63,934 nucleotides of DNA from a virus (Duplodnaviria; Caudoviricetes). Below are positions 31,105 to 61,345 of this stretch, in pieces (position 1 is the first letter of the stretch; every line of letters begins with the position of its first letter). The position numbers and the translations under genes are program-made. The notes beneath the pieces are model-generated. The model ran no database searches, was not told the origin of the DNA, and saw nothing but the letters and a program-made list of their open reading frames with translations. Location: positions 1-63,934 of the IMG/VR virus record IMGVR_UViG_3300034954_002602; one strand, written 5' to 3'.

Positions 31105-31115
31105 ACAAATAGTTA

Positions 31116-31397
31116 TGGCCCGTTCTGTTGCAAGGTGGGCCAAACCCCTGAGAATATTGGTTATTACGCCGCTAATCTCAATGCAGGCATACCGACTGTT
31201 AGGTCAGCAAACCCTAATGCTCTTTTGTTTGCATTTAAAAACTGGACGTATTCCTCGTGCCTACAGGGAGTTCTCGTAAAAAGTTTCAACGTGAATCGAT
31301 CCTAATTCCACCCCTCAAGTTTCATCGCTCAAATGGTGGAGTGGCTGGGAATTGCACCCAGGTCTTCACCGCCTATTGATTTCTAGTCAACAAACTC
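31116..31397 (-). ncRNA. ssrA: two-piece (circularly permuted) tmRNA; tag ANKRALGFADLTVGMPALRLAA
   Basis: Acceptor piece ends CTGGG-TGCAATT-CCCAG-CCACTCC-A-CCA (31334); 19-nt spacer; coding piece starts GGGGTGG..GGATCGA (31314); G3-U70 pair; tag ORF 31232-31164; outer ends approximate. Confidence 0.93.
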
Positions 31398-31404
31398 AAA
31401 TATA

Positions 31405-31433
31405 ATTATACCCTAAGGTTGACTGTTTGTCAA
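31405..31433 (-). promoter_or_regulatory. sigma70 promoter of tmRNA
   Basis: TTGACA-17-TATAAT; overlaps a divergent TTGACT-17-TAAATT promoter. Confidence 0.85.
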
Positions 31434-31454
31434 TTCTGTGCTAAATTAGTTTAT

Positions 31455-32545: not shown

Positions 32546-33622
32546 ATGAGCAAGGTAAAAATGCTTCTAGACGTCGTCGCAGAAGTCAAGAAAGAAGCAC
32601 CAGAAGATGTTCCAAACTGGAACGCCAAACTAGCAGAAGCAAAAGTAAATCTACAGAATCAAATCGCGAAAGGCAGGCTGTTGCCCAAGGGTGTTGAAGA
32701 TCATCCACTTGAACATTTCGCATTCAATTATTCCGTACAACGTGATGTGAGGGCAGGACACGTTATGAACATCATGAAGAAGTTCGATCCAAGGGTTTGT
32801 TGTCCTGTGTCAGCAGTAAAACGTTCAGACGGTGATACACTATACATATTCGATGGGCAACACAGAGCAGTGGCCCTGGCACTGTTGGGTTGGACAAAGA
32901 TCCCAGTAACAATAGTAGAAACAGATGAACCGGCCTTTGACGCAGAAGCATTTGAGATTGTTAATGACTCAGGCATATTGAGAGCAGGCACAGAAGAGAT
33001 CCACAGATGTCTATTACACAGATATAAAATGGGCGAAACAGAAACAGAAAGGGTTGCTACAGCACACGCGGTGCAGAGAGTGTTTGACGAGTGTGAGATT
33101 GATCTAGAGCCAAAACGTGTCAGGAAGAGCCCGGGCAAGTGTGGACCTAACAAACATTACTTCTCACATTTTGATTATGCATACAAAGGCATCAAGATGG
33201 CGGGTGAACACGGACTCAAGAACGCATTAGAGGCCATCAAGGCCATATACGGTGATGAGGAAGGTGGTGAGATCAATCAGGGTCTTTTCATAGGACTTAT
33301 GAAGCAGTACCAAATGGGTGCTGAGGCCAAGAGGTTAAACAGGCTTCCAGGAGACTGGATGTTCAAGATGGTTGAAGCAGTGAAGAAGGTATGCCCAAGT
33401 GGTGTGTTGGTACACACCGCAACCAAGAAACAATGGCAACACGCAAATGGTGTTGGGTGGGACGCACCGGTGGCAATGGCACATCTATTAAGAGAAGTGT
33501 ACTTGTTGGAAGATGGCACGTTCGAACCTAGTTATATGCCCAATGTTACATTGAAACTTGAGGACGGAGATATAGCCAAAGAATCAGAAGCACAAACGGC
33601 CTTCAACAAGTATGTCAAATAA
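32546..33622 (+). CDS. ParB/Srx-like DGQHR-motif protein
   Basis: VQR...YIFDGQHRAVA...IPV. Confidence 0.7.
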   Translation: MSKVKMLLDVVAEVKKEAPEDVPNWNAKLAEAKVNLQNQIAKGRLLPKGVEDHPLEHFAFNYSVQRDVRAGHVMNIMKKFDPRVCCPVSAVKRSDGDTLYIFDGQHRAVALALLGWTKIPVTIVETDEPAFDAEAFEIVNDSGILRAGTEEIHRCLLHRYKMGETETERVATAHAVQRVFDECEIDLEPKRVRKSPGKCGPNKHYFSHFDYAYKGIKMAGEHGLKNALEAIKAIYGDEEGGEINQGLFIGLMKQYQMGAEAKRLNRLPGDWMFKMVEAVKKVCPSGVLVHTATKKQWQHANGVGWDAPVAMAHLLREVYLLEDGTFEPSYMPNVTLKLEDGDIAKESEAQTAFNKYVK

Positions 33623-33803
33623 ACTTTGTTATTACAGGTGTTTCGTTACCAAGGCGGGCAAGACTGAGGAGTATGGTTATGGTCTGCCTTGGAAGGACGT
33701 GCAAGAAGAAGTTGACAAACACTACAATGAAGGCGCCGAAGCAGTGGAACTTGAGATGATCACAGAAGAGGAATTCAATGATAGATTACCAAAACCTTAC
33801 TAA
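33612..33803 (+). CDS. small acidic hypothetical protein
   Basis: Overlaps both neighbours. Confidence 0.6.
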   Translation: MSNKLCYYRCFVTKAGKTEEYGYGLPWKDVQEEVDKHYNEGAEAVELEMITEEEFNDRLPKPY

Positions 33804-34311
33804 CCTACCTGACATCAATTTCAAGAGCAAGGGTAGACCAGAACTAAAGGAGTTGGCTGACTACATTGACAGGATGAAGTCAGACCTGTTCAATGATAGG
33901 TGGAGCCAGGTCACAAAGAAACACATCAAGACTTCGCTGGTGTTGTACATAAGATCAATGCAGAAACAGTTGGCACCAATGGGATATCACTACAGGGCAC
34001 AGGACATAGTAGGTAAACAACACCTTGAACACGTGATACCTCAGAACAAGATAATAACGGCATATCTGCACGACAAGATACCAGCGGAACTTATATTACA
34101 GATGCCATTGTGTATGATCGATGACGCAGACAAGCACATACTAGAAGGAGACTGGCAGACAGCAGGTAACTGGCAGTATCCATTCCGTAGATACCAATTG
34201 GCTGGCTTCACTAAAACCATAAAAGATGTGCGTGGAAACGTGGTAGATCTTGACAACTACACACTAGATGATCACTTCGCTATGTTGGGCGTGGTTGACA
34301 ATTCAAAGTAA
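33778..34311 (+). CDS. hypothetical protein with EHxxP His-Me-nuclease-like motif
   Basis: HLEHVIPQ. Confidence 0.5.
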   Translation: MIDYQNLTNLPDINFKSKGRPELKELADYIDRMKSDLFNDRWSQVTKKHIKTSLVLYIRSMQKQLAPMGYHYRAQDIVGKQHLEHVIPQNKIITAYLHDKIPAELILQMPLCMIDDADKHILEGDWQTAGNWQYPFRRYQLAGFTKTIKDVRGNVVDLDNYTLDDHFAMLGVVDNSK

Positions 34312-34322
34312 AAGTGTATAAT
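34295..34322 (+). promoter_or_regulatory. sigma70-type promoter
   Basis: TTGACA-16-TATAAT. Confidence 0.8.
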
Positions 34323-34328
34323 TAGAAC

Positions 34329-34480
34329 AGCAAAACACCGGAGACGGTCGCGGCCAGTACTCACTTGCGAACATCATTTGGAGACACTCTATGTCGATGA
34401 TGGATTTTAAAAGCCGGAGGTGGGGTGACAGCCCTACGCCAAAGGCGAGGCTGGATAAGGCTGTCTTTGTGTGTGATGCT
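34329..34480 (+). ncRNA. candidate structured RNA, family unknown
   Basis: GC-rich intergenic; ends pair (AGCA/TGCT, ACAC/GTGT, AGACGGTC/GGCTGTCT, CCAGT/GCTGG); internal hairpins; begins at predicted TSS. Confidence 0.6.
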
Positions 34481-34488
34481 TAATCATT

Positions 34489-34998
34489 ATGCCAAGCGAA
34501 AAAACAAAAAAATTACTGGAAGGACTGGGCAAGATCACAGATTCTGCTCCAAAACCTTTCGCCGAACAGAAATATCATTCATACACAAATAGATTTTACA
34601 AGAACTTCATACACCAACTTCCAGCGATATACGACAAGGCCAAACCTAAAAAGGACGAGGACGGTGATGAGTACATAATGATTGATAGGGTGTATGGTTC
34701 ACTATACGAAGATCATCTACTACAAAAAGATGGCACAACCTACACAGGAAAACTTTACAAGAAGAGAAGATTGGTTGTCAGGAAGGATCCAATCACAGGT
34801 GAGAAGAAGAACTTCTATAGTCCTTGCACTTCAACAGCGGATGGCAGATGGTTTGACAACACAGGATTGCCTATCGAGGCACCAGACAAACTGGAACCAG
34901 AGAAGAAACCAGATCCAGAAGAAGTGGCTTTAGAGGCCAAAAGAAAAGCCGAGGCCGCAAAAGCCAAAGAAGCCGCCATACTTGCCAATCTGAAATAA
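34489..34998 (+). CDS. hypothetical protein
   Basis: 169-aa ORF. Confidence 0.65.
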   Translation: MPSEKTKKLLEGLGKITDSAPKPFAEQKYHSYTNRFYKNFIHQLPAIYDKAKPKKDEDGDEYIMIDRVYGSLYEDHLLQKDGTTYTGKLYKKRRLVVRKDPITGEKKNFYSPCTSTADGRWFDNTGLPIEAPDKLEPEKKPDPEEVALEAKRKAEAAKAKEAAILANLK

Positions 34999-35134
34999 AT
35001 AATTCCGTAACGCCACTGTCCAAGTGACGTCGGAAATAAAAGGACGCTTGAGTAAGCACTCTTTACTGGAAACAGAACGCCCTTCCGTATGCAAGATCCT
35101 TGCTAACTTTTACAAAAAACATTTATAATTGAGT

Positions 35135-36214
35135 ATGATAGAAATTCTACGTTCTAGTAATGAGCCTATGAAAATCGTTGACTGGATCAACGACTTCGGA
35201 CTGAACACACCAACCTATTTGGTGAAAGGCAAACCGTTCTATAACAGATATGATGCTATTGAAAGTTGTGTAACCGAGGGTGTTGAGTGGCCAGACTTCC
35301 GTGTATGGCAACAGTCATACAAGATGGCCGAACCAGAAGAATCATTCTTTGATCTGTGTAAGAAACAAGCACAGGCCATTAGCAAACGTTTCAAGAGAGT
35401 TAGATTGTGGTATAGTGGTGGTTACGACAGCCATACTATGTTGAAGGCTTTTTTTGAGTCTGGCCTAGATGTTGACGAGATCTGCACCTGGAGACGATTC
35501 CCTGGAGTGTTCGATAGTTTCACAAACATTGAATCTGAATACATTGGCACATTCGATGACCTACAGCACTATTGCGAACAGCACAACAGTAAGGCAAGAA
35601 TTAGGGTATGTGATGTGACCCCCGACCATTTCAGATGGTACTGTAAAAACTTTATTCATTATAATAAACACAAGACACTCGCACAGGTATTGAACGCACA
35701 GCATCATCACGTTATGGAATGCTATCCAGAGCTCATAGACAAAGAAACTATCAATGTTTCCGGAGCAGGAGATGTTGCATTAGAAGATGATGGTTTTAGG
35801 TTTTATGATGGTTTCAATTACTCCCACTCGGCTCCAAACACTTTATTTTTCTATTATGACGAGTCGATGCCTGAACTCACGTTCAAGTATGCTTATCATA
35901 TGAGAAACTATGAATACCCTGACCAGAAGAACATGGCAAAGAAGGATCTAGGGTTCACTGCCCTAAACCCAATGCTGGCCAAAAAGTTTTCTGAGGGAGT
36001 TGATGAGGTAACTGGTGGTAAAACTATTTCTTTCTGTAGGAAATCTGCACTGTTGATCAACAATGCAATAGGAACTACACACGGAAAAAGGATCCTGATC
36101 CAGTATAAAAAATTCAGGAAGAAATATGAAAAGGAAAGGAAAAAATTTTTAAATCAAGGTAAGTGCTCTAACGGATGGGTAGGTGCTCTCAGTGAGAAGC
36201 ATTATTTTATCTAG
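35135..36214 (+). CDS. PP-loop (adenine nucleotide alpha-hydrolase-like) protein
   Basis: LWYSGGYDSHTML. Confidence 0.65.
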   Translation: MIEILRSSNEPMKIVDWINDFGLNTPTYLVKGKPFYNRYDAIESCVTEGVEWPDFRVWQQSYKMAEPEESFFDLCKKQAQAISKRFKRVRLWYSGGYDSHTMLKAFFESGLDVDEICTWRRFPGVFDSFTNIESEYIGTFDDLQHYCEQHNSKARIRVCDVTPDHFRWYCKNFIHYNKHKTLAQVLNAQHHHVMECYPELIDKETINVSGAGDVALEDDGFRFYDGFNYSHSAPNTLFFYYDESMPELTFKYAYHMRNYEYPDQKNMAKKDLGFTALNPMLAKKFSEGVDEVTGGKTISFCRKSALLINNAIGTTHGKRILIQYKKFRKKYEKERKKFLNQGKCSNGWVGALSEKHYFI

Positions 36215-45477: not shown

Positions 45478-46065
45478 ATGGCAAAAGGTGATAAGCACGT
45501 AGGTGCACAAGACGTACAAGGAAACAAAGAGCAAAAATCAGAAATTGCAGTCACAGGTGCAAAATTGGATCTAAGGAAAAAGAACGGAACCATAACATTA
45601 GTGACGCCTCCGAGTTTCTTTCAAAACCAAAACAGAAGTTTCTGTTTGATTAATCTTAGCAAAAAAGACAAAGATAATTTTGCTGACCAAATAAACAAAT
45701 ACTTTCCAAAGGACGACCTAACAATTTATCTGTGGGATGATAACAACTTTTCTGCACTGGATCCTTTTGGAGGCGATGATCCTGAATACGAGAGATATCT
45801 CGAGAACTGGAAACCAAACGCCAAGGGCAGAGACTACACTTGGTTGTTGAATGCCTGCAGGGCGGCAACCACTGTAATATTGAATATGGACTACAGTTCT
45901 AATCAAATGAAAGTATGGTCAGGTTACATTCTCACAATGGCCAAGACTTGGTTCCTAAACTCCAATGTAGATGATTCAGCATCGTTTGGTGTACTAAACA
46001 GAAACAAGATCAACGGAATGCACGAGTTGTTTCCAAAGATCCAAAAACTCAAAGATAATCAGTAA
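45478..46065 (+). CDS. hypothetical protein
   Basis: Coupled to clpX. Confidence 0.65.
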   Translation: MAKGDKHVGAQDVQGNKEQKSEIAVTGAKLDLRKKNGTITLVTPPSFFQNQNRSFCLINLSKKDKDNFADQINKYFPKDDLTIYLWDDNNFSALDPFGGDDPEYERYLENWKPNAKGRDYTWLLNACRAATTVILNMDYSSNQMKVWSGYILTMAKTWFLNSNVDDSASFGVLNRNKINGMHELFPKIQKLKDNQ

Positions 46066-47309
46066 TGTCCGAAGAGACATTGGTATGCTCGTTCTGTAGC
46101 AAGAGTCGTAAAGACGTCACCAAGATGATCGTTGGTGCAAAGAAAACATCAATTTGCAATGAGTGTGTTAAATTGTGTGTTGAGATCCTAGAAGAAGATG
46201 TGATCAAAGCACGTAAGGAGAAACTGTACGCAGGTGACAAAAACATACTCAATCCTGTGGCAATCAAAGAACACCTTGATCAATATGTGATAGGCCAAGA
46301 TCAAGCAAAGACTATCCTTAGTGTTGCAGTGGCGAACCATTACAAACGAATTGTTCAGCCACCTATTGACTTCGAACTAGACAAGTCAAACGTGATGGTG
46401 CTTGGTGCCACTGGTGCAGGTAAAACACTAATGGCGAGGACAATCGCGAAATACTTGGACGTTCCATTTGCGATAGCAGACGCAACCACATTGACAGAAT
46501 CAGGATATGTTGGTGAGGATGTTGAGAACGTGGTGCAGAAACTGTATGCCAATGCAGAAGGTGACATTGAGAAAACTGAAAAAGGAATAATATTCATAGA
46601 CGAGATTGACAAGATCTGCCGTAAAGGAGAGAACACATCTCTCACCAGAGACGTGTCGGGCGAGGGTGTGCAACAAGGGTTACTGAAGATAGTAGAGGGC
46701 ACGGAGTGTAGGGTGCCTCCACATGGCGGACGAAAGCATCCAGATCAGCAGACTGTGACAATAGACACAAAGAACATATTGTTTATAGTTGGAGGTGCGT
46801 TCACAGAATTAGAGAAACAAATAAGATCAAAGAAATCTGGAGGGATAGGCTTTGGCACACAACTGAGAGAACAGGATGAGAAGAATTATCTCAGTGAAGT
46901 AAAACCAGAAGATCTAATCAAATATGGACTTATACCAGAATTTGTTGGAAGGTTCTCAATGATCACAAACATAGATCCTTTGAATGAAGCACAGTTGATC
47001 AGAATATTGACAGAACCTCGTAACGCCATATTGAAACAGGTACACTACCTGTTTGGACTGGACAACATAGAAATTGAATTTACCAAAGAAGCCAAGCAGA
47101 GCATAGCCAAGAAAGCAAAAGCACTGGGCACCAACGCAAGGGGACTTAAAAACGTAGTAGATACTGTGGTTCTTCCCTATCAATTTGACGCTGAGGAGAT
47201 GAGAAGCAAGGGAGTTGGCAAGATACAGATAACTAATGCGGTGGTTGACAATGAAGCAGACCCTGTGTTAGTATTTAAAAAAGATGGATCAACAAAGAAA
47301 CAAATTTAA
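46065..47309 (+). CDS. clpX: ATP-dependent Clp protease ATPase subunit ClpX
   Basis: CSFC..CxxC Zn finger, [35 protein letters not shown] loop. Confidence 0.95.
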
Positions 47310-47577
47310 ATCAAAATTTAGAAAAAACAATAGACCCTTAGGTTTCCAAGGTTATTATGTTGAAGTGCGTGAGGGTGAAGATGCCGTCAGAGCATACAGG
47401 AAGATCAAGAGATGGATCAAAGAGGACAAGTTCATTGATCAGATAAGAGCCAACAATACATACACAAAGCCATCCGCTATCAAAAGAGAAAAGCAGAAAG
47501 AACGTAGGAGAATCCTACGTAAATTGCAACGTGAACGAGATAGCAACATCTTTCTTGGCGTAAAACGAGGCAGATAA
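47284..47577 (+). CDS. rpsU: ribosomal protein bS21
   Basis: VEVREGE...A.RK.KR...Y.KPS..KR; N-terminal basic extension. Confidence 0.75.
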   Translation: MDQQRNKFKSKFRKNNRPLGFQGYYVEVREGEDAVRAYRKIKRWIKEDKFIDQIRANNTYTKPSAIKREKQKERRRILRKLQRERDSNIFLGVKRGR

Positions 47578-47599
47578 TTTTACCAAAAAAGGTCGCAAT

Positions 47600-47632
47600 T
47601 TGACATATAGTACATATATGTTATAATAAATA
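47600..47632 (+). promoter_or_regulatory. overlapping sigma70 and late promoters of hsp20
   Basis: TTGACA-16-TATAAT overlapping TAAATA. Confidence 0.75.
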
Positions 47633-47634
47633 CA

Positions 47635-47698
47635 GTTGAAGATTGCTATAGATAGGATCTTCACAACATTAACTCGCTTAACAATAGGAGGAAAGCAA
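47635..47698 (+). promoter_or_regulatory. ROSE-like RNA thermometer
   Basis: 5' hairpin TGAAGAT..ATCTTCA; CTCGCT (UYGCU) pairs with SD AGGAG with bulged G. Confidence 0.6.
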
Positions 47699-48139
47699 AT
47701 GACAAAACATCTATCTATTTTTAATAACCTAAGACCATACACAGTAGGATTTGACGACTGGTTCGATCACTTCGAAACAATGATGGACGACAGTTTCTTC
47801 AGAGGAACTAGCAACTTCCCACCATACAACATAGTGAAGACTGGTGACAACACCTACGATGTTGAACTTGCTCTTGCAGGTTTCAACAAAGACGACATCG
47901 AAGTAGAATATAAAGAGAATCTACTTACAGTCAAATCCAAGAAACAGGAAGAGACTAAAGACGAGGATGGTAATGTGATACAACACAGAGGCATTTCAAA
48001 GAGAATGTTTTCTAAATCATTTACCATTGCCAACGATGTAGAAGTCAAGGGTGCAGAACTCAAGGACGGCCTATTAAAAGTGTCAATGGAGAGAATAATC
48101 CCAGAACACAAGAAGGCTAAACTTATCGACATCAAGTAA
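47699..48139 (+). CDS. small heat shock protein Hsp20 (IbpA-like)
   Basis: FPPYNI, ELALAGF, HRGIS.R.F, A.LKDGLL. Confidence 0.93.
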   Translation: MTKHLSIFNNLRPYTVGFDDWFDHFETMMDDSFFRGTSNFPPYNIVKTGDNTYDVELALAGFNKDDIEVEYKENLLTVKSKKQEETKDEDGNVIQHRGISKRMFSKSFTIANDVEVKGAELKDGLLKVSMERIIPEHKKAKLIDIK

Positions 48140-48150
48140 TGCAAACAAAT

Positions 48151-48176
48151 GGATAGGGTGGTAAAACACCCTGTCC
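48151..48176 (+). terminator. hairpin after hsp20 (probable terminator)
   Basis: GGATAGGGTG-GTAAAA-CACCCTGTCC; weak U-tract. Confidence 0.55.
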
Positions 48177-48212
48177 TAATTGACAACTATCACAGATGTG
48201 TTATAATAAGGT

Positions 48213-48515
48213 ATGACAATGGCAGATATACAAACACTTACAAAAGAAAAAATTAAACTAGATGAACCTGGAATGTACGATGTGATATTCCTTAACGACA
48301 ACATCACCACTATGGAGTTCGTTGTTAAAGTTCTAAAACAGATATTCAACAAGACTCCTGAGCAGGCACAGAACATCACTATGAGGATACACCAGGACGG
48401 ACAGGGTATCGTGGGATCTTACACACACGAAGTTGCCGAGCAGAAGGGTATAGAAGCGACACTGGCCGCTAGGCAAGAGAACTTCCCACTCCAGATCAAA
48501 GTCAAGAAACAGTGA
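48213..48515 (+). CDS. clpS: Clp protease adaptor ClpS
   Basis: YDVIFLND..TTMEFVV.VL..IF, IH..G.G, AE.K, FPL. Confidence 0.93.
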   Translation: MTMADIQTLTKEKIKLDEPGMYDVIFLNDNITTMEFVVKVLKQIFNKTPEQAQNITMRIHQDGQGIVGSYTHEVAEQKGIEATLAARQENFPLQIKVKKQ

Positions 48516-48853
48516 TTGATTTTAGAGCATACGTTGAGAAAAATCAAAAAATAATACAATTCGTCAAAGACGTAACTCCTGGATACCTCGACAAATATGT
48601 TGGCACATTAGATTACGCCACTGCAAGGTTTAATACAATTTTAATTAAACTGTCACAAGATCCATTGATGGCTGATCAATGCAAAAAAGAAGTCGAGGAT
48701 TGTTTCAACACCACACAAGACTTTTATGATTACACAGTTAGACTCTCAAATGCAACTTGGGTCTCAAGATGGTACTACAGATTTATACTACACATAAAAG
48801 GCACCTTGCACATTCCAAAGATCAAATTTCTTCTAGATAAAATCAATAATTAA
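48512..48853 (+). CDS. hypothetical protein
   Basis: GTGA overlap with clpS. Confidence 0.55.
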   Translation: MIDFRAYVEKNQKIIQFVKDVTPGYLDKYVGTLDYATARFNTILIKLSQDPLMADQCKKEVEDCFNTTQDFYDYTVRLSNATWVSRWYYRFILHIKGTLHIPKIKFLLDKINN

Positions 48854-48857
48854 CCAT

Positions 48858-49886
48858 ATGACCATATGGGCAGAATTCACTCCGTTGAAAAAATGTGTCG
48901 TGGGCACTCTGCCTGATGCAGATCAAATACTACCTCACACCAACCTAACCAATAGGTACAAGAAATATTTTACAGAAATAATCAATACATCAAAGAAAGA
49001 ACTGGACCAACTTGCAAAGACGTTGAATGATCTTGGAGTGCAAACATCGAGAAGCAAACAGCATTATCCAATACACAATGGCCACACAATCACAACACCA
49101 CCGTTGGCGGTAAGGGATATTTTCTCAGTGTATGGTAATGGTTTATTCAAAGGTAACTTTGCTTGTGAATGGAACAAAGATGTACCGGACTCGTGCAACC
49201 ACGTGCTTGAATCTATGAAGTTTGATAGTGTCACAAAACTACCCACCAATGATATTTTCTTTGATGGAGATTTCACTACCTTTGATCCTGACAAGGATTT
49301 GAATCGTCCGTTGTTCCATCCACCTATGTCCTTGCGTATTGGTAACGATATTGTTATTGCAAAAAGATATGGGAGAGAGGGCAACGATCTAGGCAAAGAT
49401 GCCTACATAGATTGGTTGAGATCTATCAACCCTTCTGTGAGGATACACACGATAGACACAGAGAGTCATATCGATTCACAAATATTTTTAGTGCGTCCTG
49501 GCTTACTGATAACTTGTTTACAAGATAACAAACTGCCCGAATATTTTGATAAATGGGAAAAGGTAAAAGTAAAAGCGGTGACATCGCAGGCACTCCATAA
49601 GAAAAATCGCTACAGGCACAAAAAGTTCCATCCGGTCATTGCCCAGTCATTTTACAATTTTTTAGAAACTTGCACAGAAGAGACATACTTCGACATCAAC
49701 AGTCTAAGTGTGAATGAAAACACTGTACTATTCACAGGACGCCATACGGAACTTTTTAGAAAACTCGAAAGGAGAAATGTCAACTGTGTAGCAATAAGTA
49801 TGAAAGCAACCACATTCTGGGACACGGGAGTTCATTGTGCAACTAACGAACTGGAAAGGGAAGGAACTTTAGAAGATTATGCTTAA
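48858..49886 (+). CDS. amidinotransferase-family protein
   Basis: EFTPLKKCVVG, VRD, HIDS..LVRPGL, GVHCATN. Confidence 0.8.
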   Translation: MTIWAEFTPLKKCVVGTLPDADQILPHTNLTNRYKKYFTEIINTSKKELDQLAKTLNDLGVQTSRSKQHYPIHNGHTITTPPLAVRDIFSVYGNGLFKGNFACEWNKDVPDSCNHVLESMKFDSVTKLPTNDIFFDGDFTTFDPDKDLNRPLFHPPMSLRIGNDIVIAKRYGREGNDLGKDAYIDWLRSINPSVRIHTIDTESHIDSQIFLVRPGLLITCLQDNKLPEYFDKWEKVKVKAVTSQALHKKNRYRHKKFHPVIAQSFYNFLETCTEETYFDINSLSVNENTVLFTGRHTELFRKLERRNVNCVAISMKATTFWDTGVHCATNELEREGTLEDYA

Positions 49887-50082
49887 TTGGTTATTTTGGG
49901 CGATACCCAGACAATACATTAGGCCCTACATATTCGCCTTATGGTTGGTGATGTTCTTCCTGCCTGCGTACATTATGGGATTGCAATTAACAAAGTTAGG
50001 ATTTATAATAAACTGGATCTGGTTCGACGTAGTGTTCTATGGTTGGGTCAGGGCCAAACAAATGTTAGGAGACGATGAATGA
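49879..50082 (+). CDS. small membrane protein
   Basis: Hydrophobic, Trp-rich. Confidence 0.55.
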   Translation: MLNWLFWAIPRQYIRPYIFALWLVMFFLPAYIMGLQLTKLGFIINWIWFDVVFYGWVRAKQMLGDDE

Positions 50083-50300
50083 AAGCAATAGTATGGAGTA
50101 AACCTGCGTGTGTTTACTGCGAGAAATCAAAAGCCTTGCTGAAAGCAAAAGGTATAGAATATGAAGAGAAGAACATAGCAGAAGGACACAAGATACAGGA
50201 CCTTTTGGAACTTGTACCAAACGCAAGGACGATGCCACAGATATGGTTAGATGAGGAACACATAGGTGGTTTCTTTGAGTTGGAGAAGAAACTCAAGTAA
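50079..50300 (+). CDS. glutaredoxin
   Basis: CVYC, TMPQI, IGGF. Confidence 0.9.
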   Translation: MKAIVWSKPACVYCEKSKALLKAKGIEYEEKNIAEGHKIQDLLELVPNARTMPQIWLDEEHIGGFFELEKKLK

Positions 50301-50350
50301 GTTGACAACTACCAGATTGTAGTTTAAAATTACTATAAACAAGGAGATTT

Positions 50351-50536
50351 ATGATCAAGGAAGCATTGATTAAGAAACTGGAAGGCGAGATAGAGGTAGC
50401 AAAAACAGACCTTAGAACTTTCCTAGCAAATCCGATCGGCGTGGCAGAACACATCGATTACGTGATTACTGCTGAGAAAAAGTTAGAAGCACTCGCTCAC
50501 GCAGAAGATAAACTTGAATCGCTGAACAAGTTATAA
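50351..50536 (+). CDS. hypothetical protein
   Basis: AAGGAG SD; NPIGVAEH motif. Confidence 0.7.
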
Positions 50537-50862
50537 TGACATACACTGTCAATGACAAGTGTATTATGTGTAAGCACACTGACTGTGTGGAGGTGTGTCC
50601 TGTTGACTGTTTCTACGAAGGCGAAAATATGCTTGTCATCAACCCAGATGAATGTATAGACTGTGGCGTGTGTGAACCGGAGTGTCCTGAGGATGCAATA
50701 TTGCCAGACACAGACGACAACGGCAGAGGGTGGGTGGACTTCAATAGGAAATGGTCGACTTCGGGTTGGCCTGTACTGACCAGTAAGAAAGATTCTTTAG
50801 ATCCTGATGGAAAGCACAAGAACGAAGATAACAAACTAGAAAAATATTTTAAAGATAAATGA
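50536..50862 (+). CDS. fdxA: 7Fe-type ferredoxin FdxA
   Basis: [33 protein letters not shown]. Confidence 0.93.
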
Positions 50863-51047
50863 TGAAGAAAAAGAAAAAATCGAAATGGCAAGCCAGGCGT
50901 GAGCAGGAGGCCAGCCAGAATTCACAGTTCGATCCAAAGATACACGATCTTGGACGGGCGGGATTTGGATTCCAAATGAAAAAAGACTATAAAAGTAAAC
51001 CTGAAGAACTGTCAGGCAAGAACCTACCATTCTCAAAAGACAAATGA
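50859..51047 (+). CDS. small basic hypothetical protein
   Basis: Overlaps both neighbours. Confidence 0.5.
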
Positions 51048-51454
51048 TACTAGATAAAATTAAAGAGATGGGCGAAAACCTCAAGATGTTGGAAGGCCAC
51101 GACAGGTTGCATTACCTCATTGACAAGGCCAAAGAAATAGAGCCACTTCCTGAAGCCGCCAAGATAGAAGACAACAGGATACGTGGTTGTGCCTCTAAAC
51201 TTTGGATCATAGGCGGCACGACTGAAAACGGCACAATGCAATACAGAGTCGATGGAGATGCACACATCAGTAAGGGCACTGCGAAGGTTGTGACAGATCT
51301 GGTCAATGGCGAACACAGGAGTGCTGTGGCAAACCTCACAGTAGAGGATTTTACACCATTGGGCATAAAAGAATTATTAACAATGCAGAGACAGAATGGA
51401 CTGGGTGAGTTGATTGATAGGATAATAAGGATCGCCCATAGAGATGAAAATTGA
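51044..51454 (+). CDS. sufE: SufE family sulfur-transfer protein
   Basis: YLID, N.IRGCASKLW, D.DA.ISKG, L..QRQNGL. Confidence 0.9.
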   Translation: MILDKIKEMGENLKMLEGHDRLHYLIDKAKEIEPLPEAAKIEDNRIRGCASKLWIIGGTTENGTMQYRVDGDAHISKGTAKVVTDLVNGEHRSAVANLTVEDFTPLGIKELLTMQRQNGLGELIDRIIRIAHRDEN

Positions 51455-52040
51455 TATAGAAGTAAATGCAACTCATTGTAATACCTGGCCCACTCTGGTA
51501 TTGGAAATCAACAATAACAAAATATTTTCTGATCTAGTCAAAGATAGGCAGAAAATCAGTTTAGAATACACGGATCTCAAACAACAAGGAAACAAATTCG
51601 TAATCGGAATGATTAGAAAAAGTTTTGGCCTCGCTGATATATGGGATACCGTTTACAAAAACAACATCGTAGTACAAGACAAGAAGATAGAAATCCTAAG
51701 TTTAAAATTAGATGATGTTGAATGCAAAGATTTATTAGGGAGCCGTTTCTACGTTCAACGGACAGGTAAGCAACCAAGTTATTTTCCGGACGTTGTGGAG
51801 TCAACTGGCGTGATGAACTACAATGGATATTTTACTTTTGACTTCGATCTGCCTTTGTACAATTCTATAATCAACAAGAAATACAAACAACAAGAAAACA
51901 AGGATCTCAGTTACTTCAGTAATTACACCAAGGTGTTTCATTACGACGACGAAATAAAAGTAATAAACGAAATCAACAGTATATTGAAAGAAGTGGATGA
52001 AAAATTTAGTCATAAGCGTTCCAAGATTAGAAATTCATAG
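51444..52040 (+). CDS. hypothetical protein
   Basis: Overlaps both neighbours. Confidence 0.6.
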   Translation: MKIDIEVNATHCNTWPTLVLEINNNKIFSDLVKDRQKISLEYTDLKQQGNKFVIGMIRKSFGLADIWDTVYKNNIVVQDKKIEILSLKLDDVECKDLLGSRFYVQRTGKQPSYFPDVVESTGVMNYNGYFTFDFDLPLYNSIINKKYKQQENKDLSYFSNYTKVFHYDDEIKVINEINSILKEVDEKFSHKRSKIRNS

Positions 52041-53520
52041 ACCGCCTATCAGTACAGCGATAGTTGCCGAAGTGATAAGGACCACTGGTGCTCCAGTACA
52101 GGCACTTGACTTGAATTGTGAATTCTATCATTTTTTGCCTGACAGGCAGGCATACTACAGTTGGGATGAAATTTGGGACCAAGTACGGAACCCAACCTTT
52201 ACGGAACTAAAAAACTTATTTAGATTCATCAAGCAGAGCCTTGAAAAAATGAAATCTTATGATAGATATTGGATCAGTGTTTTTGGTTCGTCGGGGCATA
52301 TCTTTTCAAAACTGCTCTGCAAGTTTATTCGGAAACATCTGCCAAATAAGATAGTGATACTAGGAGGACAGGGAGCCGCCGCGAAGGATCTACATTCAAA
52401 GGACGTGGGATTTGGTAATGTCCTCAGGAAGCAAGGACTATGTGATATGTATCTCACAGGCGAGGGAGAAGAAGTCATTAAACAAGTGCTGGCAGGAAAC
52501 ACTGACGGTCCAGGCATAAACAATGAGGATCCTGTGCAGATCGACGACATAAATGATCTTCCATTCCCGAACTACAGTTTCTACGATCTAGATCGCTATG
52601 ACTACCTTGACAAGAAAGAAGTGTTCATAGTCGGTAGCAGAGGATGTGTGAGACGATGCACGTACTGTGACGTCGCCAAGTATTGGCCCAAGTTCAGATA
52701 CAGGTCCGGTGAGAACATAGCATCTGAGATGATCAATCATTACGAGAAACACGGAGTCACAAAGTTCTACTTCACTGACAGTCTGATCAATGGCAGTATG
52801 AAAGCGTTCAATGATATGTGTGATAGGCTTGCCAAATACAACACAGACCACAAGGCAGGCTTCACGTGGAAGGGACAGTTCATATTCAGACCCAAAAATC
52901 AACTGCCCCAGGATCACTTCGCCACCGTGGCCGCGGCGGGTGGTAAGGAGTTCTACGTAGGTGTTGAAACGGGCAGTGATAAAATCAGATGGGAGATGGA
53001 CAAGAAGTTTACCAACGAAGACATAGACTTCCAACTAGAGGAGTTCAGCAAGTACAATATAAATGTGATATTCCTTATGTTGATTGGTTACGTTACCGAA
53101 ACACTAGATGATCACAAGGACACTCTCAAGATGTTCAAGCGTTGGCAGAAGTATGTGGCCACAGGCACGATCAAAGGCATCGATCTTGCCACTGGATTGC
53201 TGTTCCTGTCTGACACGCCTTTGCAACGTCAGATAGATCAACACGGAGTCTATTTCTTGAATGCCGAAGGAAACGAACCAGGAAAGCCTTACACAGGATT
53301 GTGGCAGGCCAAGACCAATCCTGATCTAGATGTACCAGAGAGGATACGTAGGAGGATGGAGACGCACATGGAGGCCATCAAGTACAACTGGCCCATATGG
53401 AGAGGCGAGCAAAGGCTCAATCACATCAAGCATATGACACAGAAGTATTTGGATTACCTTAAAGGACAATCTGACAATTTGGTAAAAATAAAGATAGGCA
53501 ACCTGAACTTCTTTGAATAG
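51997..53520 (+). CDS. B12-binding-domain radical SAM protein
   Basis: ILGG, GEGE, LPFP.Y, SRGCVRRCTYC, FTDS, GVETGS, GYVTET. Confidence 0.85.
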   Translation: MKNLVISVPRLEIHRPPISTAIVAEVIRTTGAPVQALDLNCEFYHFLPDRQAYYSWDEIWDQVRNPTFTELKNLFRFIKQSLEKMKSYDRYWISVFGSSGHIFSKLLCKFIRKHLPNKIVILGGQGAAAKDLHSKDVGFGNVLRKQGLCDMYLTGEGEEVIKQVLAGNTDGPGINNEDPVQIDDINDLPFPNYSFYDLDRYDYLDKKEVFIVGSRGCVRRCTYCDVAKYWPKFRYRSGENIASEMINHYEKHGVTKFYFTDSLINGSMKAFNDMCDRLAKYNTDHKAGFTWKGQFIFRPKNQLPQDHFATVAAAGGKEFYVGVETGSDKIRWEMDKKFTNEDIDFQLEEFSKYNINVIFLMLIGYVTETLDDHKDTLKMFKRWQKYVATGTIKGIDLATGLLFLSDTPLQRQIDQHGVYFLNAEGNEPGKPYTGLWQAKTNPDLDVPERIRRRMETHMEAIKYNWPIWRGEQRLNHIKHMTQKYLDYLKGQSDNLVKIKIGNLNFFE

Positions 53521-53555
53521 TTGACCGACAATGTTAGTCGTGTTATAATAGTGAC

Positions 53556-53954
53556 ATGATTGATATGCCACCTGGATGGACTCCACAACAAAATCCTTCT
53601 GTCGATCCCCAACTGAAAACTGACCTTAGCGATATACAAGAACATCCACCAACTCAGCAGGAATACATCTCTAAAATTGTAGAAAAATTGAAAACCTGCT
53701 ACGATCCTGAAATCAGTGTTGACATATACAATCTTGGTCTAGTTTACGACATCAAGGTGACAGAGGACGGTTGGGTACACGTGTTGATGAGTCTCACGAG
53801 TGCTTTCTGTCCTGCCGCTGATATGATACCAAGGGACGTGCAACAGGCCATTGAAAGCATTCCAAATCTAAAATGTAAAGTAAAGATCACAATGCAACCA
53901 CAGTGGGGTCGTGACATGATCAATCCAGAAGTAAGAGGTCTGATGGGACTATGA
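53556..53954 (+). CDS. SufT/MIP18 (DUF59) Fe-S assembly protein
   Basis: LKTCYDPEISVDIYNLGLVY, MSLTSAFCP, P.W. Confidence 0.9.
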   Translation: MIDMPPGWTPQQNPSVDPQLKTDLSDIQEHPPTQQEYISKIVEKLKTCYDPEISVDIYNLGLVYDIKVTEDGWVHVLMSLTSAFCPAADMIPRDVQQAIESIPNLKCKVKITMQPQWGRDMINPEVRGLMGL

Positions 53955-55573
53955 TCAGACTGATACTTGTACTTGCATTTTTCTTTACACACGCTAACGC
54001 AAAGGTTGATGATTGCGAATGGGATAATGAAACCCCTTGCGTGGTGATAAGCAAGGGCATAAACAATTCAAACGCAATCGGTAACAAGGTATCACCAACA
54101 CACACCATAACAAAATCAGAGATTATAAAGTATAGACTAATTGACCTGCCCAGGGCACTGAACTACATTCAAGGACTGGCAGTGACACAGTCAGGGCCGA
54201 CAGGACAACAGGCATCACTGTTCCTGAGGGGTACCAATTCTAATCAAACATTAGTGTTATTGAATGGCATACCAATCAATGACTTCTCAACACCCACAGG
54301 TGCACACGACTTTGGCCAGGACTTTATGTTCAATGTTGTGCAGATAGATGTGTACAAAGGATCACAGGGTGCTCATTGGGGAGCGGACGCTGTTGGTGGT
54401 GCTATCAATTTCAGGACAACTGTGGATTATGATCAGAGATTAAGTTTATCTGGAAATGGCAATGATAAAACTATCAGTGGTAACTTCTACACTAAATTAA
54501 ACGACTTCGACATATCTGTTTCGGCAGGTGAACATCAATCAAGAAACGTTTCTGCTCTATCAGGTGCTGATGAGAAGGATGGCACAAAGAATCAAACCAT
54601 AGGGGTTAACGTAAGCAAATGGTATGATCTCATACACTGGCGAACAACTTGGTTCGCAAGGAACACTTTCTCTGACATAGATGGTCATAGTGTTGCTCTG
54701 CAAGATGGATATTTTGCTGACAACACTTTCTTTGCGTTACAGACTGGCATTGATTATTTGAACAACAGTCTTACTTTCCACACACACGAATATGATAGAG
54801 ATTACTACAGAGCAGATTACGAAAGTGAAAACTACACAATCAGAGGAACACATCAAACAGAAAAGTATGGTTTTGGTTTTGATTACAAACACAACGAAGC
54901 AATAGGCAAATACACAAACATTCATCAACGTCATAATCTAGGGTACTTCTTTAACTTCTCACATAATATATTCTCATATCATCACAGGTTTGATGAGGAA
55001 CACGAAACATACAAGTTGGGTTTCTTCAAAGAGATAGGAGATGGTTTAAGTCTAAGTGGTAGCACATCAACAAGTTACAGAGATGAAACATCATACACCA
55101 GCATAGAGTATGGTGATTCACAAGAACTGACATTGACTAAAAATAATTTCGCAACTACTATATTCAAGAATGATATTGGTAATCTCAATTCTGACGGTAT
55201 AGAATTCAGTTACAAGCAAGAAAACTCCAAATTCTTCATCAGTCATTTGAACAGCAAGACAAATGACAGTGTCAATTTGAGGAGACCAAACTGGAGTCTT
55301 GGATTTATGCACACGCAGGATCTATCAAACAACTTCACTCTAACAACAAACTACAAATACAAAGGCAAACACTTAGATGTACACAATGTCACATATGAAA
55401 GTGGAATATCGATGCCAGAGACACACCTATTGGATCTAAATCTCGGATACAACTACCATGGCATAGAGTTTGGTGTGAGCCTGTTAAATTTGCTTGATGA
55501 GGACTACGAAGCACCGCACGGTTTCAGCCAAGAGGGAAGGAAATTTACAATGGGATTCAAAAGGAGTTTCTAA
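53951..55573 (+). CDS. TonB-dependent outer membrane receptor (BtuB-like, short)
   Basis: Signal peptide; plug LRGTNSNQTLVLLNG..IDVYKG..G.DAVGGAIN; NLLD..Y...G...GR; terminal F. Confidence 0.85.
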   Translation: MIRLILVLAFFFTHANAKVDDCEWDNETPCVVISKGINNSNAIGNKVSPTHTITKSEIIKYRLIDLPRALNYIQGLAVTQSGPTGQQASLFLRGTNSNQTLVLLNGIPINDFSTPTGAHDFGQDFMFNVVQIDVYKGSQGAHWGADAVGGAINFRTTVDYDQRLSLSGNGNDKTISGNFYTKLNDFDISVSAGEHQSRNVSALSGADEKDGTKNQTIGVNVSKWYDLIHWRTTWFARNTFSDIDGHSVALQDGYFADNTFFALQTGIDYLNNSLTFHTHEYDRDYYRADYESENYTIRGTHQTEKYGFGFDYKHNEAIGKYTNIHQRHNLGYFFNFSHNIFSYHHRFDEEHETYKLGFFKEIGDGLSLSGSTSTSYRDETSYTSIEYGDSQELTLTKNNFATTIFKNDIGNLNSDGIEFSYKQENSKFFISHLNSKTNDSVNLRRPNWSLGFMHTQDLSNNFTLTTNYKYKGKHLDVHNVTYESGISMPETHLLDLNLGYNYHGIEFGVSLLNLLDEDYEAPHGFSQEGRKFTMGFKRSF

Positions 55574-56193
55574 TGGAAGTACAACTAATAGACAAGATGG
55601 GTACAGACTTATCCGTTGTCAATGCGGCAAGGGTAAGTTACGCAAAAACAAAAGACGTGTTCGATGACAAGGACGAGAAGTTGATCAAGTATCTCGCAGA
55701 ACACGAGCACTGGTCTCCATTCGCACACGCATCATTACAGTTCAGGATCAAGGCACCTGTGTTTGTAGCAAGGCAACTGGTCAAACACCAAGTGGGCCTT
55801 GTGTGGAACGAAGTATCGAGACGATATGTTGATGACAAGCCAGAGTTCTTCACACCTTCTTCGTGGAGGGGCAGACCCAAGAACAGCAAACAGGGTTCTG
55901 ATGGAGAAGTACACACGGACGAGGAATACTATCAGAGATACATCAACGGCTGTAAGGTATACTATCATCTCTTATTGAACGAAGGTGTCGCACCAGAACA
56001 GGCACGTATGGTGCTACCACAGTCGATGATGACTGAATGGTACTGGTCTGGCACACTTTACGCATTCGCCAGGGTGTGTAACCTGAGGTGCAAACCAGAC
56101 ACGCAACGAGAAACACAGGAGGTGGCCAACGAGATAGACAGACTGACCAATGAGGCGTTTCCGCACAGTTGGAAACATTTAAGAAAACTTTAA
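55573..56193 (+). CDS. thyX: flavin-dependent thymidylate synthase
   Basis: AARVSY, H.SPF, ARQLVKH, NEVSRRY, EQARMVLP, TQ.E. Confidence 0.95.
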   Translation: MEVQLIDKMGTDLSVVNAARVSYAKTKDVFDDKDEKLIKYLAEHEHWSPFAHASLQFRIKAPVFVARQLVKHQVGLVWNEVSRRYVDDKPEFFTPSSWRGRPKNSKQGSDGEVHTDEEYYQRYINGCKVYYHLLLNEGVAPEQARMVLPQSMMTEWYWSGTLYAFARVCNLRCKPDTQRETQEVANEIDRLTNEAFPHSWKHLRKL

Positions 56194-56242
56194 TTGATTT
56201 GTAACAAAACTTTAACATAGCATATATTAAATAGGAACGAAG

Positions 56243-57208
56243 ATGGAACAAACTTTCTCATTATGGATGGTACTGGGTTTCTTGTTTGCCGCATACTCTG
56301 TTGTGGCCAATGACAGTGTGCAGACACTGGGTACCTGGATGGCATCAAATCAAAACAAATTCAAATGGTACTACTTGTGGGCGGCGGCCACTGTGGTGCT
56401 TTGGTTCACCATATGGTGGGGTTGGTCAAAGAACGGTGGCGACATATCCTACGGTAGGTTGAACAAGATACCGTTCCAAGAGATACAATGGTATCACGCA
56501 ACCGCACCTTTGATACTTTTATTACTGACACGTGTTGGTATTCCTGTATCCACAAGTTTCCTTGTGCTGTCTGCTTTCGCCAGCACATTCGTTCTAGAGA
56601 AGATGTTGGTGAAATCAATCATAGGCTATGCACTTGCGGCCGTTGTGGCGTATGCGGCATGGCAGATAATTGAGAGGATCATAGACGAGAAGAAAAACCA
56701 AATTTCGGACAAGAACAAGACACGTTGGCGTATCGCCCAATGGTGTAGCACCGCGTTCCTATGGTACACTTGGCTGAGCCATGACATGGCCAACATCGCT
56801 GTGTTCCTGCCAAGAGCAGTGCCAGTTGAATGGATGGTAACGATATCAATTGTGTTCGCGGCCTTCCTTGGATACACATTCTGGGAGAAGGGTGGTAAGA
56901 TACAAAAGATAGTGGTTGAGAAAACAGGCACGAGATTTGTTAGATCTGCCACACTGATCGATTTGGTCTATGCTTTCATACTATTGTTCTTCAAACAGTA
57001 CAACGACATACCAATGAGCACAACTTGGGTGTTCGTGGGATTGTTATGTGGTAGAGAACTTGCTATATCAACACTGATGAAGGACTACAAGTTCAAGTAC
57101 GTCTTTCCGATAGTGGCCAAAGACTTTGCCAAGATGATGCTGGGTTTGTTAGTGTCAGTTGGTATTGTGCTTACCATACACTACGTGATAGTTCCAAACG
57201 GACTATAA
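56243..57208 (+). CDS. multi-pass membrane protein, PiT/anion-permease-like
   Basis: ANDSVQT, GIPVSTS, HDMAN, PMSTT resemble PiT repeat motifs. Confidence 0.55.
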   Translation: MEQTFSLWMVLGFLFAAYSVVANDSVQTLGTWMASNQNKFKWYYLWAAATVVLWFTIWWGWSKNGGDISYGRLNKIPFQEIQWYHATAPLILLLLTRVGIPVSTSFLVLSAFASTFVLEKMLVKSIIGYALAAVVAYAAWQIIERIIDEKKNQISDKNKTRWRIAQWCSTAFLWYTWLSHDMANIAVFLPRAVPVEWMVTISIVFAAFLGYTFWEKGGKIQKIVVEKTGTRFVRSATLIDLVYAFILLFFKQYNDIPMSTTWVFVGLLCGRELAISTLMKDYKFKYVFPIVAKDFAKMMLGLLVSVGIVLTIHYVIVPNGL

Positions 57209-57251
57209 TCAGATATAGACATAGCCAAAATTTCCAAGTATAATATATCGT

Positions 57252-58058: not shown

Positions 58059-58073
58059 CGGGTAAATACGCAT

Positions 58074-59693: not shown

Positions 59694-59727
59694 TTGACAA
59701 AATAACCAAAATCTGTTATACTGGAGT

Positions 59728-60639: not shown

Positions 60640-60683
60640 TTCACTACGCACAATAAACAGATCACACCCTTATAAGTATTTGT

Positions 60684-61271
60684 ATGCACATCGACGCACA
60701 GGGCAAGATTCTAGTGGCACCCCCAGGTATGCCTGATCCAAGGTTCGCCAAGACTGTGGTGTTCATATGGAAGCACGACGTGTCTGGTGCGGCAGGGGTC
60801 GTTGTCAACAAGCGATGCCAAAGGCCCACATTCGAACACGTGTGCCAAGAGGGCAGGATTCCATTGAAGAAGGGCGTCAATCCACCGGTGTACTGGGGTG
60901 GACCAATACTGAACAACGTGGTTGGGGTACTACATAGCACTGAATACAGACTGCCCAGCACTAACACGCTGATAGAGGGTACTGTGGGATTCACGCTTGA
61001 CAGCAAGATACTGAATGATGTGGCACAGGGCAAAGGTCCACTCAATAGAATGATCACGCTAGGGATGGCCAACTGGAACGCTTCACAGTTGGAGGAAGAG
61101 ATCGAACACCCACACGCACCACAGATGAGTTGGTTGATGTTGGACTACGACGAGAAATTAGTGTTTGGACAATTAGAGGATACAAAACCTGACGACATCT
61201 GGGAGGATTGTGTCAGCAGGGCGGTGAAAAATAAAACAGCAGAAATCACATCTAAAATTTTTAAGGACTAG
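60684..61271 (+). CDS. YqgE/AlgH (UPF0301) family protein
   Basis: LVA.P.M.DPRF..TVV...H...GA.G.VVN, VY.GGP, G.A.W...QLEEEI. Confidence 0.88.
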   Translation: MHIDAQGKILVAPPGMPDPRFAKTVVFIWKHDVSGAAGVVVNKRCQRPTFEHVCQEGRIPLKKGVNPPVYWGGPILNNVVGVLHSTEYRLPSTNTLIEGTVGFTLDSKILNDVAQGKGPLNRMITLGMANWNASQLEEEIEHPHAPQMSWLMLDYDEKLVFGQLEDTKPDDIWEDCVSRAVKNKTAEITSKIFKD

Positions 61272-61345
61272 GTGTTTATTTTAAGTCCTTTGAAATAGTA
61301 GCACATATCCGGTATTTGGTAATTTCGATAAATACCCATATACGT

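Follow-up and report, generated by a model that had tools for sequence, protein, structure and literature searches.

A structured RNA ahead of an orphan gene of marine myophages: a putative translational operator

Introduction

What is the task of a long, stably folded RNA placed between a perfect promoter and the start codon of an orphan phage gene? The question is raised by IMG/VR virus record IMGVR_UViG_3300034954_002602 (Duplodnaviria; Caudoviricetes), the 63,934 nucleotides (nt) of which were analysed as a whole and are called the window here. The element under study, a structured RNA of about 150 nt (34328–34481, + strand), lies just 5′ of an open reading frame (ORF) for a protein of 169 amino acids (aa; 34489–34998, + strand). 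A preliminary description of the window had offered two options, a novel RNA resembling 6S RNA in size and closing stem, or a structured leader of the gene at 34489.

We infer that the element is transcribed as the 5′ leader of the messenger RNA (mRNA) of the 169-aa gene and acts in cis, at the post-transcriptional level, as a translational operator with a protein as its likely ligand. The probability of this reading is put at roughly one half. The features on which it is built, namely promoter consensus, fold, covariation, strand, fixed position, single copy and the absence of a terminator, were computed directly.

Promoter and fold of the element

A sigma-70-type promoter on the + strand (34295–34322) consists of the −35 box TTGACA (34295–34300), a 16-nt spacer and the −10 box TATAAT (34317–34322). 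It matches the consensus at 12 of 12 positions and is the sole site to do so among eight promoter-like sites in 33000–36000. Transcription is predicted to start near 34329, 7 nt past the −10 box.

The + strand of 34329–34480 reaches a minimum free energy (MFE) of −61.8 kcal/mol, compared with a mean of −44.1 (standard deviation 3.8) for dinucleotide shuffles; z is −4.65, and none of 200 shuffles was as good. The reverse complement is much weaker, with a z of −2.22 and 4 of 200 shuffles as good. The G+C content is 0.53 in the element and about 0.42 in the window. The sigma-70 promoter of its own and the structured RNA that the preliminary description had proposed are both borne out by these values. 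The helices it had listed (AGCA/UGCU, ACAC/GUGU, the GGAGACGGUC/GGCUGUCUUUG rod, CCAGU/GCUGG and CUC/GAG) all lie within the MFE structure, as do two of its hairpins, CAUCAUU/GAUGAUG and GUGGGGU-GACA-GCCCUAC. Its third hairpin, CGCC-AAA-GGCG, has to be given up, for the comparative data pair GGC 34444–34446 with GCC 34413–34415. The best-conserved hairpin of all, GACA-CUCUA-UGUC (34383–34395), had been overlooked and is also missing from the single-sequence MFE of the window.

In the consensus structure, a long interrupted rod, P1, ends in three pairs (P1c, CUC/GAG) that close a three-way junction with the hairpins P2 and P3. According to the MFE and to an alignment of 30 viral sequences (A7, see below), the 5′ strand of P1 (34329–34362, + strand like all parts of the element) comprises AGCA 34329–34332, the rod 34335–34349, an internal loop 34350–34353, P1b CCAGU 34354–34358 and P1c CUC 34360–34362. 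The 3′ strand (34447–34480) comprises GAG 34447–34449, GCUGG 34450–34454, a loop AUAA, the rod 34459–34474 and UGCU 34477–34480. The first junction strand, J1/2 (34363–34382), is A/U-rich, about 20 nt long and begins with A-Y-U, as judged from conservation in at least 27 of the 30 sequences. It leads into P2 (34383–34395), which has four pairs and a five-base loop ending in the invariant U34390 and A34391 and is supported by A7 and a MAFFT alignment. The second strand, J2/3 (34396–34412, GAUGAUGGAUUUUAAAA), measures 10–17 nt in the consensus and is conserved only within subfamilies; in the window's subfamily, pairing between this strand and the 3′ part of J1/2, as seen in the MFE structure, can extend the P2 arm. 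P3 (34413–34446) adjoins P1c without a linker and varies greatly in length: in the window, GCC 34413–34415 pairs with GGC 34444–34446 in A7 around an optional extension (34416–34443) with a GGAGGU stretch and a UGACAG loop, and many relatives have just GCC-GNRA-GGC.

Relatives and covariation

Relatives were collected by protein-guided scans of IMG/VR; the downstream 169-aa gene was found in 35 loci and the upstream 177-aa gene in 21. The stretch 5′ of the 169-aa gene is recognisably homologous in most loci and shares the blocks CUCAUUUGYAA, GAGACNCUYUANGUC and GCGAG; the closing stem differs in sequence among the loci, yet its complementarity is kept. A first covariance model (R1) was made from nine sequences and a second (R2) from the 26 matches of the first; the window element scores 62.6 bits (E 4.9e-12) with R1 and 76 bits (E 4.9e-15) with R2. 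R2 finds the RNA in 30 of 40 viral sources, always on the strand of the gene and just 5′ of it. The ten sources without a match are seven loci in which an upstream ORF runs right up to the gene, with no gap in between (L023, L030, L032, L033, L035–L037), and three loci that served as controls: L057, and L065 and L069, which had been found by a sequence pattern alone. In metagenomes, 518 stretches encode a relative of the protein. Among the best 80 of these 518, which were examined, 75 have the RNA; in the remaining five, the contig extends no more than 89 nt beyond the 5′ end of the gene. The RNA is a single-copy element: there is one match in the 63.9-kb window, and five whole viral records of 39–131 kb have at most one copy each, only where the gene has the RNA.

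The comparison of homologues that the preliminary description had suggested as a check was made with 30 diverse viral sequences (A7) and 64 distinct metagenome sequences (A8), and compensatory changes were found in both. In A7, 95.3% of the cells form standard pairs, and 27 of 32 pairs are altered on both sides; in A8, the values are 97.2% and 24 of 32. The covariation score of A7 is 0.651, and none of 500 column shuffles reaches any of five measures. When the 3′ partners were slid by 1–3 columns as a control, pairing in A7 fell to 32–47% and the score to at most 0.083; over A7 and A8 together, the slid controls paired at 31–47%. Every P1 helix has pairs altered on both sides in A7, and the outer pair of P1c is CG in 18 sequences, GC in 5, GU in 4 and UA in 1. 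The closing pair of P2 is CG in 14, AU in 10 and GC in 5. In P3, G34413:C34446 is invariant (30/30), and the next pairs covary (CG 22, GC 4, GU 3, AU 1). Structure-blind MAFFT alignments show the same compensatory changes; in P2, for instance, 93.3% of the cells are paired, compared with at most 44% after sliding, and the closing pair is AU in 11, GC in 5 and CG in 4 sequences.

The fold is also seen in single sequences. When 12 homologues were folded one by one, z ranged from −0.83 to −5.61 and was at or below −2.3 in 9 of the 12. The rod and the P2 and P3 hairpins appeared in most of these folds, including that of L028, which has the weakest z; in L050 and L021, the junction region was folded differently. 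G-U pairs are common in A7 (e.g., one pair is GU in 15 of 30 sequences, and another is UG in 17 of 30). They fix the + strand as the RNA strand, in agreement with the preliminary description, which had read several G-U pairs in this direction, and with the weaker z of the − strand.

The near-invariant bases (at least 27 of 30 in A7) are few and clustered at the junction. On the side of J1/2, they are U34361, C34362, A34363, U34365, A34370 and A34382, together with position 34364, which is U in 27 of 30 sequences and C in the window. Elsewhere, they are the pair C34385:G34393, U34390, A34391, the pair G34413:C34446, G34447 and A34448. The junction is likely the recognition site of the element.

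Some relatives deserve separate mention. L077 is 87% identical to window positions 33700–35100 overall, and the best tblastn segment shows 100% protein identity; its leader belongs to another subtype, with a P1 like that of L005, despite the matching protein. This pattern suggests mosaic exchange around the leader. The gene with its RNA (104.9 bits) is also found in L075 (NHCU01000021.1), a 12-kb contig of a metagenome-assembled genome labelled Betaproteobacteria bacterium TMED41. This is probably a phage contig, and the label is at best a weak hint to the host. A scan of viral contigs with the J1/2 and P2 pattern gave 16 matches, 11 of which were loci of the family. The other five, which are antisense to coding sequence in another phage group, were rejected as chance matches; R2 misses the two that were searched.

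Position of the element at the start codon

In all 30 viral matches and in 74 of the 75 metagenome matches, a homologue of the 169-aa gene directly follows the RNA. The distance from the RNA to the AUG has a median of 7 nt in 30 homologues and is 5–19 nt in most loci. Upstream neighbours vary among the loci, and the RNA accompanies the downstream rather than the upstream gene. In the window, the spacer (34481–34488, + strand) is short, A/U-rich and without a Shine-Dalgarno sequence; among the leader spacers, only that of L034 has one. A partition-function fold of the leader with 45 nt of coding sequence is predicted to leave the region from −8 to +12 65% unpaired, and that from −30 to −11, which is paired in P1, 26% unpaired. 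Between 34329 and the AUG at 34489, no terminator-like site was found, nor does a U-tract follow P1. Of the two options of the preliminary description, it is the structured leader of the 34489 gene that this position, the covariation and the lack of a terminator speak for. Downstream of the gene, a scan gave a weak terminator-like hairpin (35091–35103, + strand), and the next gene has its own promoter-like site (35100–35129).

A promoter-like site (TTGAC-N16-19-TAnA[AC]T) lies 5′ of the RNA in 24 of the 30 viral matches and in all 68 metagenome matches with at least 45 nt of upstream sequence. The six viral matches without a promoter of their own all follow a phage gene for initiation factor 1 (IF-1, infA; Pfam eIF-1a, E 8e-21 and 2e-25), where the element is inside an operon. 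The IF-1 gene is directly 5′ of the RNA in L016 (2683–2901), L020 and L027–L029. In L016 and L028, its stop codon is read within the 5′ strand of P1, so the end of IF-1 translation should briefly open the rod there. No IF-1 gene was found in the window fragment.

In the metagenome contig L128 (227–1710), an intact RNA (129.8 bits) is separated from the 169-aa gene by a 272-aa ORF. No family matches the 272-aa product. The inserted ORF begins with ATGCCAA, as the displaced gene does, and a TATAAAATATAAAAATA stretch now lies 5′ of the latter; L051 has a homologue of the inserted ORF at another site. A leader peptide was considered and rejected: the AUG of a 30-aa ORF (34391–34483) is made by the P2 loop and stem and is found only in the variants with an A-U closing pair, 10 of 29 sequences.

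The 169-aa protein

In the AlphaFold2 model of the 169-aa protein (predicted local distance difference test score, pLDDT, 79.7), a beta-rich core lies between a helix at the N-terminus and a long one at the C-terminus. The core of the family carries an invariant ADGRWF.N.G motif and basic hairpins. The isoelectric point (pI) is about 9 in most homologues and 5.1–9.6 among the RNA-linked ones. A profile search gave 135 clusters (50% identity), all but three of which are under 240 aa; the three long ones (533, 955 and 1559 aa) match the profile only in short repeated stretches.

The protein has no family in Pfam, PHROG, NCBIfam or PADLOC. Foldseek comparison of the model with PDB and BFVD gave nothing at E ≤ 0.001, the best BFVD row being an unnamed 102-aa protein (E 4e-3). 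The best hit of VIA-align was to Rhs repeat beta-hairpins (Z 2.8), and the ESM Atlas held no usable match. Among GenBank phages, there was neither a blastn match for the DNA nor a tblastn match for the protein, and a full-text literature search on the protein motif found no paper.

Proposed function and its alternatives

A mechanism can be proposed in which transcription from the consensus early promoter would begin at the first base of the P1 rod. At the tip of the rod sits the three-way junction with its about 15 near-invariant bases: UCAYU...A in J1/2, UA in the P2 loop, a base pair of P3 and GA of P1c. On its 3′ side, the rod ends about 7 nt (5–10) before the AUG, which is located in a predicted open, A-rich stretch and has no Shine-Dalgarno sequence. 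Binding of a factor to this conserved junction would lock the rod at the border of the ribosome-binding site and thereby set the rate of translation, and the paired 5′ end would also shield the mRNA from decay. The footprint of the 30S ribosomal subunit extends roughly from −20 to +15. The base of the rod lies within this footprint, and fixing or loosening the rod should therefore alter initiation. The factor would most likely be a protein, possibly the 169-aa product itself, an arrangement that would resemble the autogenous control of T4 gene 32 or of ribosomal proteins. A protein ligand is weakly favoured over a metabolite because the element precedes a single orphan gene and not a set of metabolic genes.

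Several points weigh against the operator. No expression platform was recognised: inspection by eye gave no conserved alternative pairing, and there is no terminator. In typical riboswitches or operators, the switching helix is much shorter and less stable than this rod. The protein is just mildly basic, it is acidic to neutral (pI 5.1–6.6) in the RNA-bearing L027–L029, and the structure searches gave no RNA-binding fold. Eight relatives of the gene are without any RNA match, and the insertion in L128 implies that the gene can exist without an adjacent leader. A7 and A8 were fitted to the structure of the model, which somewhat inflates their pairing counts; the MAFFT alignments, the folds of single homologues and the G-U pairs do not hinge on this fit. 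Finally, one marine metatranscriptome contains 71% of the sampled words of the region, as contigs, which span the neighbouring genes at similar low depth; one of them (34197–34402) crosses the promoter. The signal may be read-through or DNA carry-over, and because the contigs also span the flanks and the promoter, it shows no start, end or transcription of the region.

Among the alternatives, a riboswitch of a new class comes first and is unlikely. The junction would bind an ion or another small ligand from the infected cell, such as a metabolite, and the base of P1 would then shield the ribosome-binding region differently. The pocket would, with the same small likelihood, be formed by UCAYU...A, the UA of the P2 loop and the GC-GA of P3/P1c. 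It is equally doubtful that, in large marine phages of hosts poor in Shine-Dalgarno sequences, an immediate-early gene would in this manner be made to depend on a metabolite or ion of the infected cell. A conserved junction core in covarying helices, a variable peripheral hairpin and a place in the 5′ untranslated region are what a riboswitch would show, and glutamine (glnA) riboswitches occur in Melnitz-like phages and pelagimyophages, according to the available excerpts of a report on these related phages (PMC9004378). However, the element precedes one gene family only, which has no recognisable metabolic role, and the ORF inserted in L128 is without a family as well. Neither an alternative pairing nor a terminator was found that might serve as expression platform, and P1, which has about 25–30 pairs in most members, could not be switched by a ligand.

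A passive 5′ rod without a specific ligand, which would block decay that depends on the 5′ end or serve as a site for RNase III cleavage in mRNA maturation, is a little harder to uphold. Maturation by RNase III is known from the lambda N leader and the T7 early transcripts. The pairing of the first transcribed bases, the length of the rod with its internal loops and the open AUG region would all suit this role. Yet a passive rod has no need for a three-way junction with some 15 near-invariant bases, unpaired or at the junction, that are kept across subfamilies with diverged helices. Moreover, the element is inside the transcript in the loci after IF-1 and therefore cannot cap a 5′ end there.

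The third alternative, of slighter likelihood again, is a small RNA acting in trans, either stand-alone or cut from the mRNA, which might be 6S-like or another mimic aimed at the host machinery and with which the gene would merely share a promoter. Its own perfect promoter, its length and its highly stable fold are in favour of it, and the phage group has other RNA genes, such as that for transfer-messenger RNA (tmRNA). Against it stand the missing terminator and U-tract after P1 and the position abutting the start codon of the same gene family. Furthermore, the RNA is promoterless in 6 of 30 loci, belongs to no Rfam family, including 6S, and forms a three-way junction without a central bubble.

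Antitermination in cis, as by the put RNA of phage HK022, in which the nascent fold would modify RNA polymerase for read-through of downstream terminators, is very improbable. The element does lie directly 3′ of a strong early promoter in most loci, and a weak terminator-like hairpin follows the gene. However, the position at the start codon is kept in the six promoterless loci after infA, the element follows the gene and not the promoter context, and the next gene has a promoter-like site of its own. An element acting at the DNA level (inverted repeats bound by a protein, or an origin) or a chance fold is hardly credible: the rod is indeed an inverted repeat in DNA, but its many G-U pairs, which disfavour such a role, would be C-A mismatches on the opposite strand, where z is much weaker, and compensatory changes maintain the pairing.

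Genomic context

The record is 17% complete according to CheckV. Its products include ribonucleotide reductase, ThyX, ClpX, ClpS, ribosomal protein bS21, HSP20, SufE, several radical-SAM enzymes, two TctA transporters and the curli pore CsgF/CsgG. The stretch 45478–63302 is packed with host-like auxiliary genes, i.e., those for ClpX, bS21, HSP20, ClpS, SufE, an Fe-S assembly protein, a TonB-plug protein, ThyX, CsgF, CsgG and a curlin-repeat protein. The CsgG sequence shares 64% identity with its counterpart in Pelagibacter phage HTVC008M and 53% with the one in Methylophilales phage Melnitz. On account of these identities, the window is a piece of a large marine myophage akin to pelagimyophages.

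A two-piece (permuted) tmRNA of the alpha type, with the tag peptide ANKRALGFADLTVGMPALRLAA, was found by an Rfam scan and ARAGORN at 31114–31437 on the − strand; ARAGORN gave no other RNA gene in the window. The tmRNA near the locus is kept in related contigs (L013, 923–1266; L043, 381–704; L053, 305–657). The available excerpts (PMC9004378) report such tmRNAs in Melnitz-like phages as well as in pelagimyophages, and the curli pore in the pelagimyophage group.

Downstream of the 169-aa gene, the 361-aa product of 35129–36214 (+ strand) has an SGGYDS stretch and no match in Pfam, PHROG, NCBIfam or PADLOC. This stretch resembles the PP-loop motif of ATP-pyrophosphatases.

Shine-Dalgarno sequences are scarce in this phage: GGAG, GAGG or AGGA precedes 20 of 69 ORF starts. 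TATAAT- or TATAAATA-like boxes lie just 6–12 nt 5′ of many start codons, e.g., those at 12973, 24051, 29316, 47636, 48213, 53556, 57252 and 58074. The close boxes and the scarcity of Shine-Dalgarno sequences suggest late promoters of the T4 type and very short leaders. Beside leaders as short as this, one of 160 nt is unusual.

Significance

Structured leaders with such covariation are usually functional. The present family occurs in more than 100 contigs of abundant uncultured marine phages, which carry genes for translation (IF-1, bS21, tmRNA) and in which most genes are without a Shine-Dalgarno sequence. The leader flags an orphan early gene as tightly controlled and thus offers a handle on the function of this gene. 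The perfect sigma-70 promoter allows promoter, leader and gene to be assayed as one unit, directly in E. coli reporters. Were the ligand a metabolite, the element would be a new class of phage riboswitch; if it were the 169-aa protein, the latter would represent a new RNA-binding fold.

Comparison with known systems

The preliminary description had called the RNA unassigned and had proposed a cmscan search, and indeed nothing in Rfam 15 matches the element. At gathering scores, the whole window and 17 related loci gave no family for it. At E values up to 10, the leaders of the window (34200–34600), L013, L003 and L016 gave no riboswitch or other family. The scans yielded nothing but the tmRNA and chance rows at 7–19 bits.

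Some known motifs were sought in the alignments by eye and rejected as inconsistent across subfamilies: hammerhead and other ribozyme cores, a tRNA-like or T-loop P2, a k-turn or loop E in the internal loops of P1, and pairing of the P2 loop with P3 or the junction strands. A ToxI-like RNA of a type III toxin-antitoxin system was likewise set aside; the element is single copy and unrepeated, and the protein has no PADLOC match.

With 6S RNA, the element shares its size and the pairing of its 5′ and 3′ ends in a long helix. It differs in having a three-way junction and no central bubble, in lacking a terminator of its own and in being bound to one coding gene. The 6S-like RNA of the preliminary description is accordingly not retained; the fold is not a bubbled rod, no Rfam 6S match was obtained, and in 6 of 30 loci the element is a promoterless part of an operon after IF-1.

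The pRNA of phage phi29 is a phage RNA of 120–170 nt with paired ends, a three-way junction, two hairpin arms and an early promoter. The element resembles it in size class, paired ends, junction, two hairpins and early promoter, and differs from it in being fused to an mRNA, in having no Rfam match and in coming from a phage related to T4-like myophages. Moreover, the P3 loop is not conserved, so there is no fixed loop-loop pairing, unlike in phi29 pRNA.

The put RNA of HK022 consists of two stem-loops, is tied to its promoter and causes antitermination in cis. Like put, the element would be a structured, cis-acting RNA made first from an early phage promoter; unlike put, it is tied to a start codon and kept without a promoter in 6 of 30 loci.

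The glutamine riboswitches reported for marine phages share with it, as far as the available excerpts go (PMC9004378), a conserved junction core in covarying helices and the same broad phage group. The element differs in that it matches no Rfam riboswitch, precedes an orphan gene, shows no expression platform and has a very long P1.

Structured RNAs in phages have also been surveyed at large scale. Fremin, Bhatt and Kyrpides (2023; PMC10690425) list 8495 unnamed candidate structured RNAs in IMG/VR, and many of these motifs lie within 25 nt upstream of genes, according to the available excerpts of the paper. The excerpts also describe structured RNAs 5′ of phage gp32 genes that are likely cis-regulators and absent from Rfam. 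The present element is not among the examples discussed in these excerpts and may be among the 8495 candidates. A literature search for structured RNAs in the phages studied here gave nothing specific to the element.

The closest comparison is with leaders under autogenous control. The leader of T4 gene 32 is a pseudoknot through which the gene product controls its own translation, and leaders of ribosomal protein genes act likewise. Similar to these, the element abuts the AUG of one gene family and travels with the gene, has no terminator, and leaves an open and A/U-rich start region. It differs from the gene 32 leader in being a three-way junction on a long rod and in that its gene product is without a known nucleic-acid-binding fold. 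Judged by sequence comparison, the element is a new RNA family, not in Rfam 15, within the familiar broad class of structured 5′ leaders or operators.

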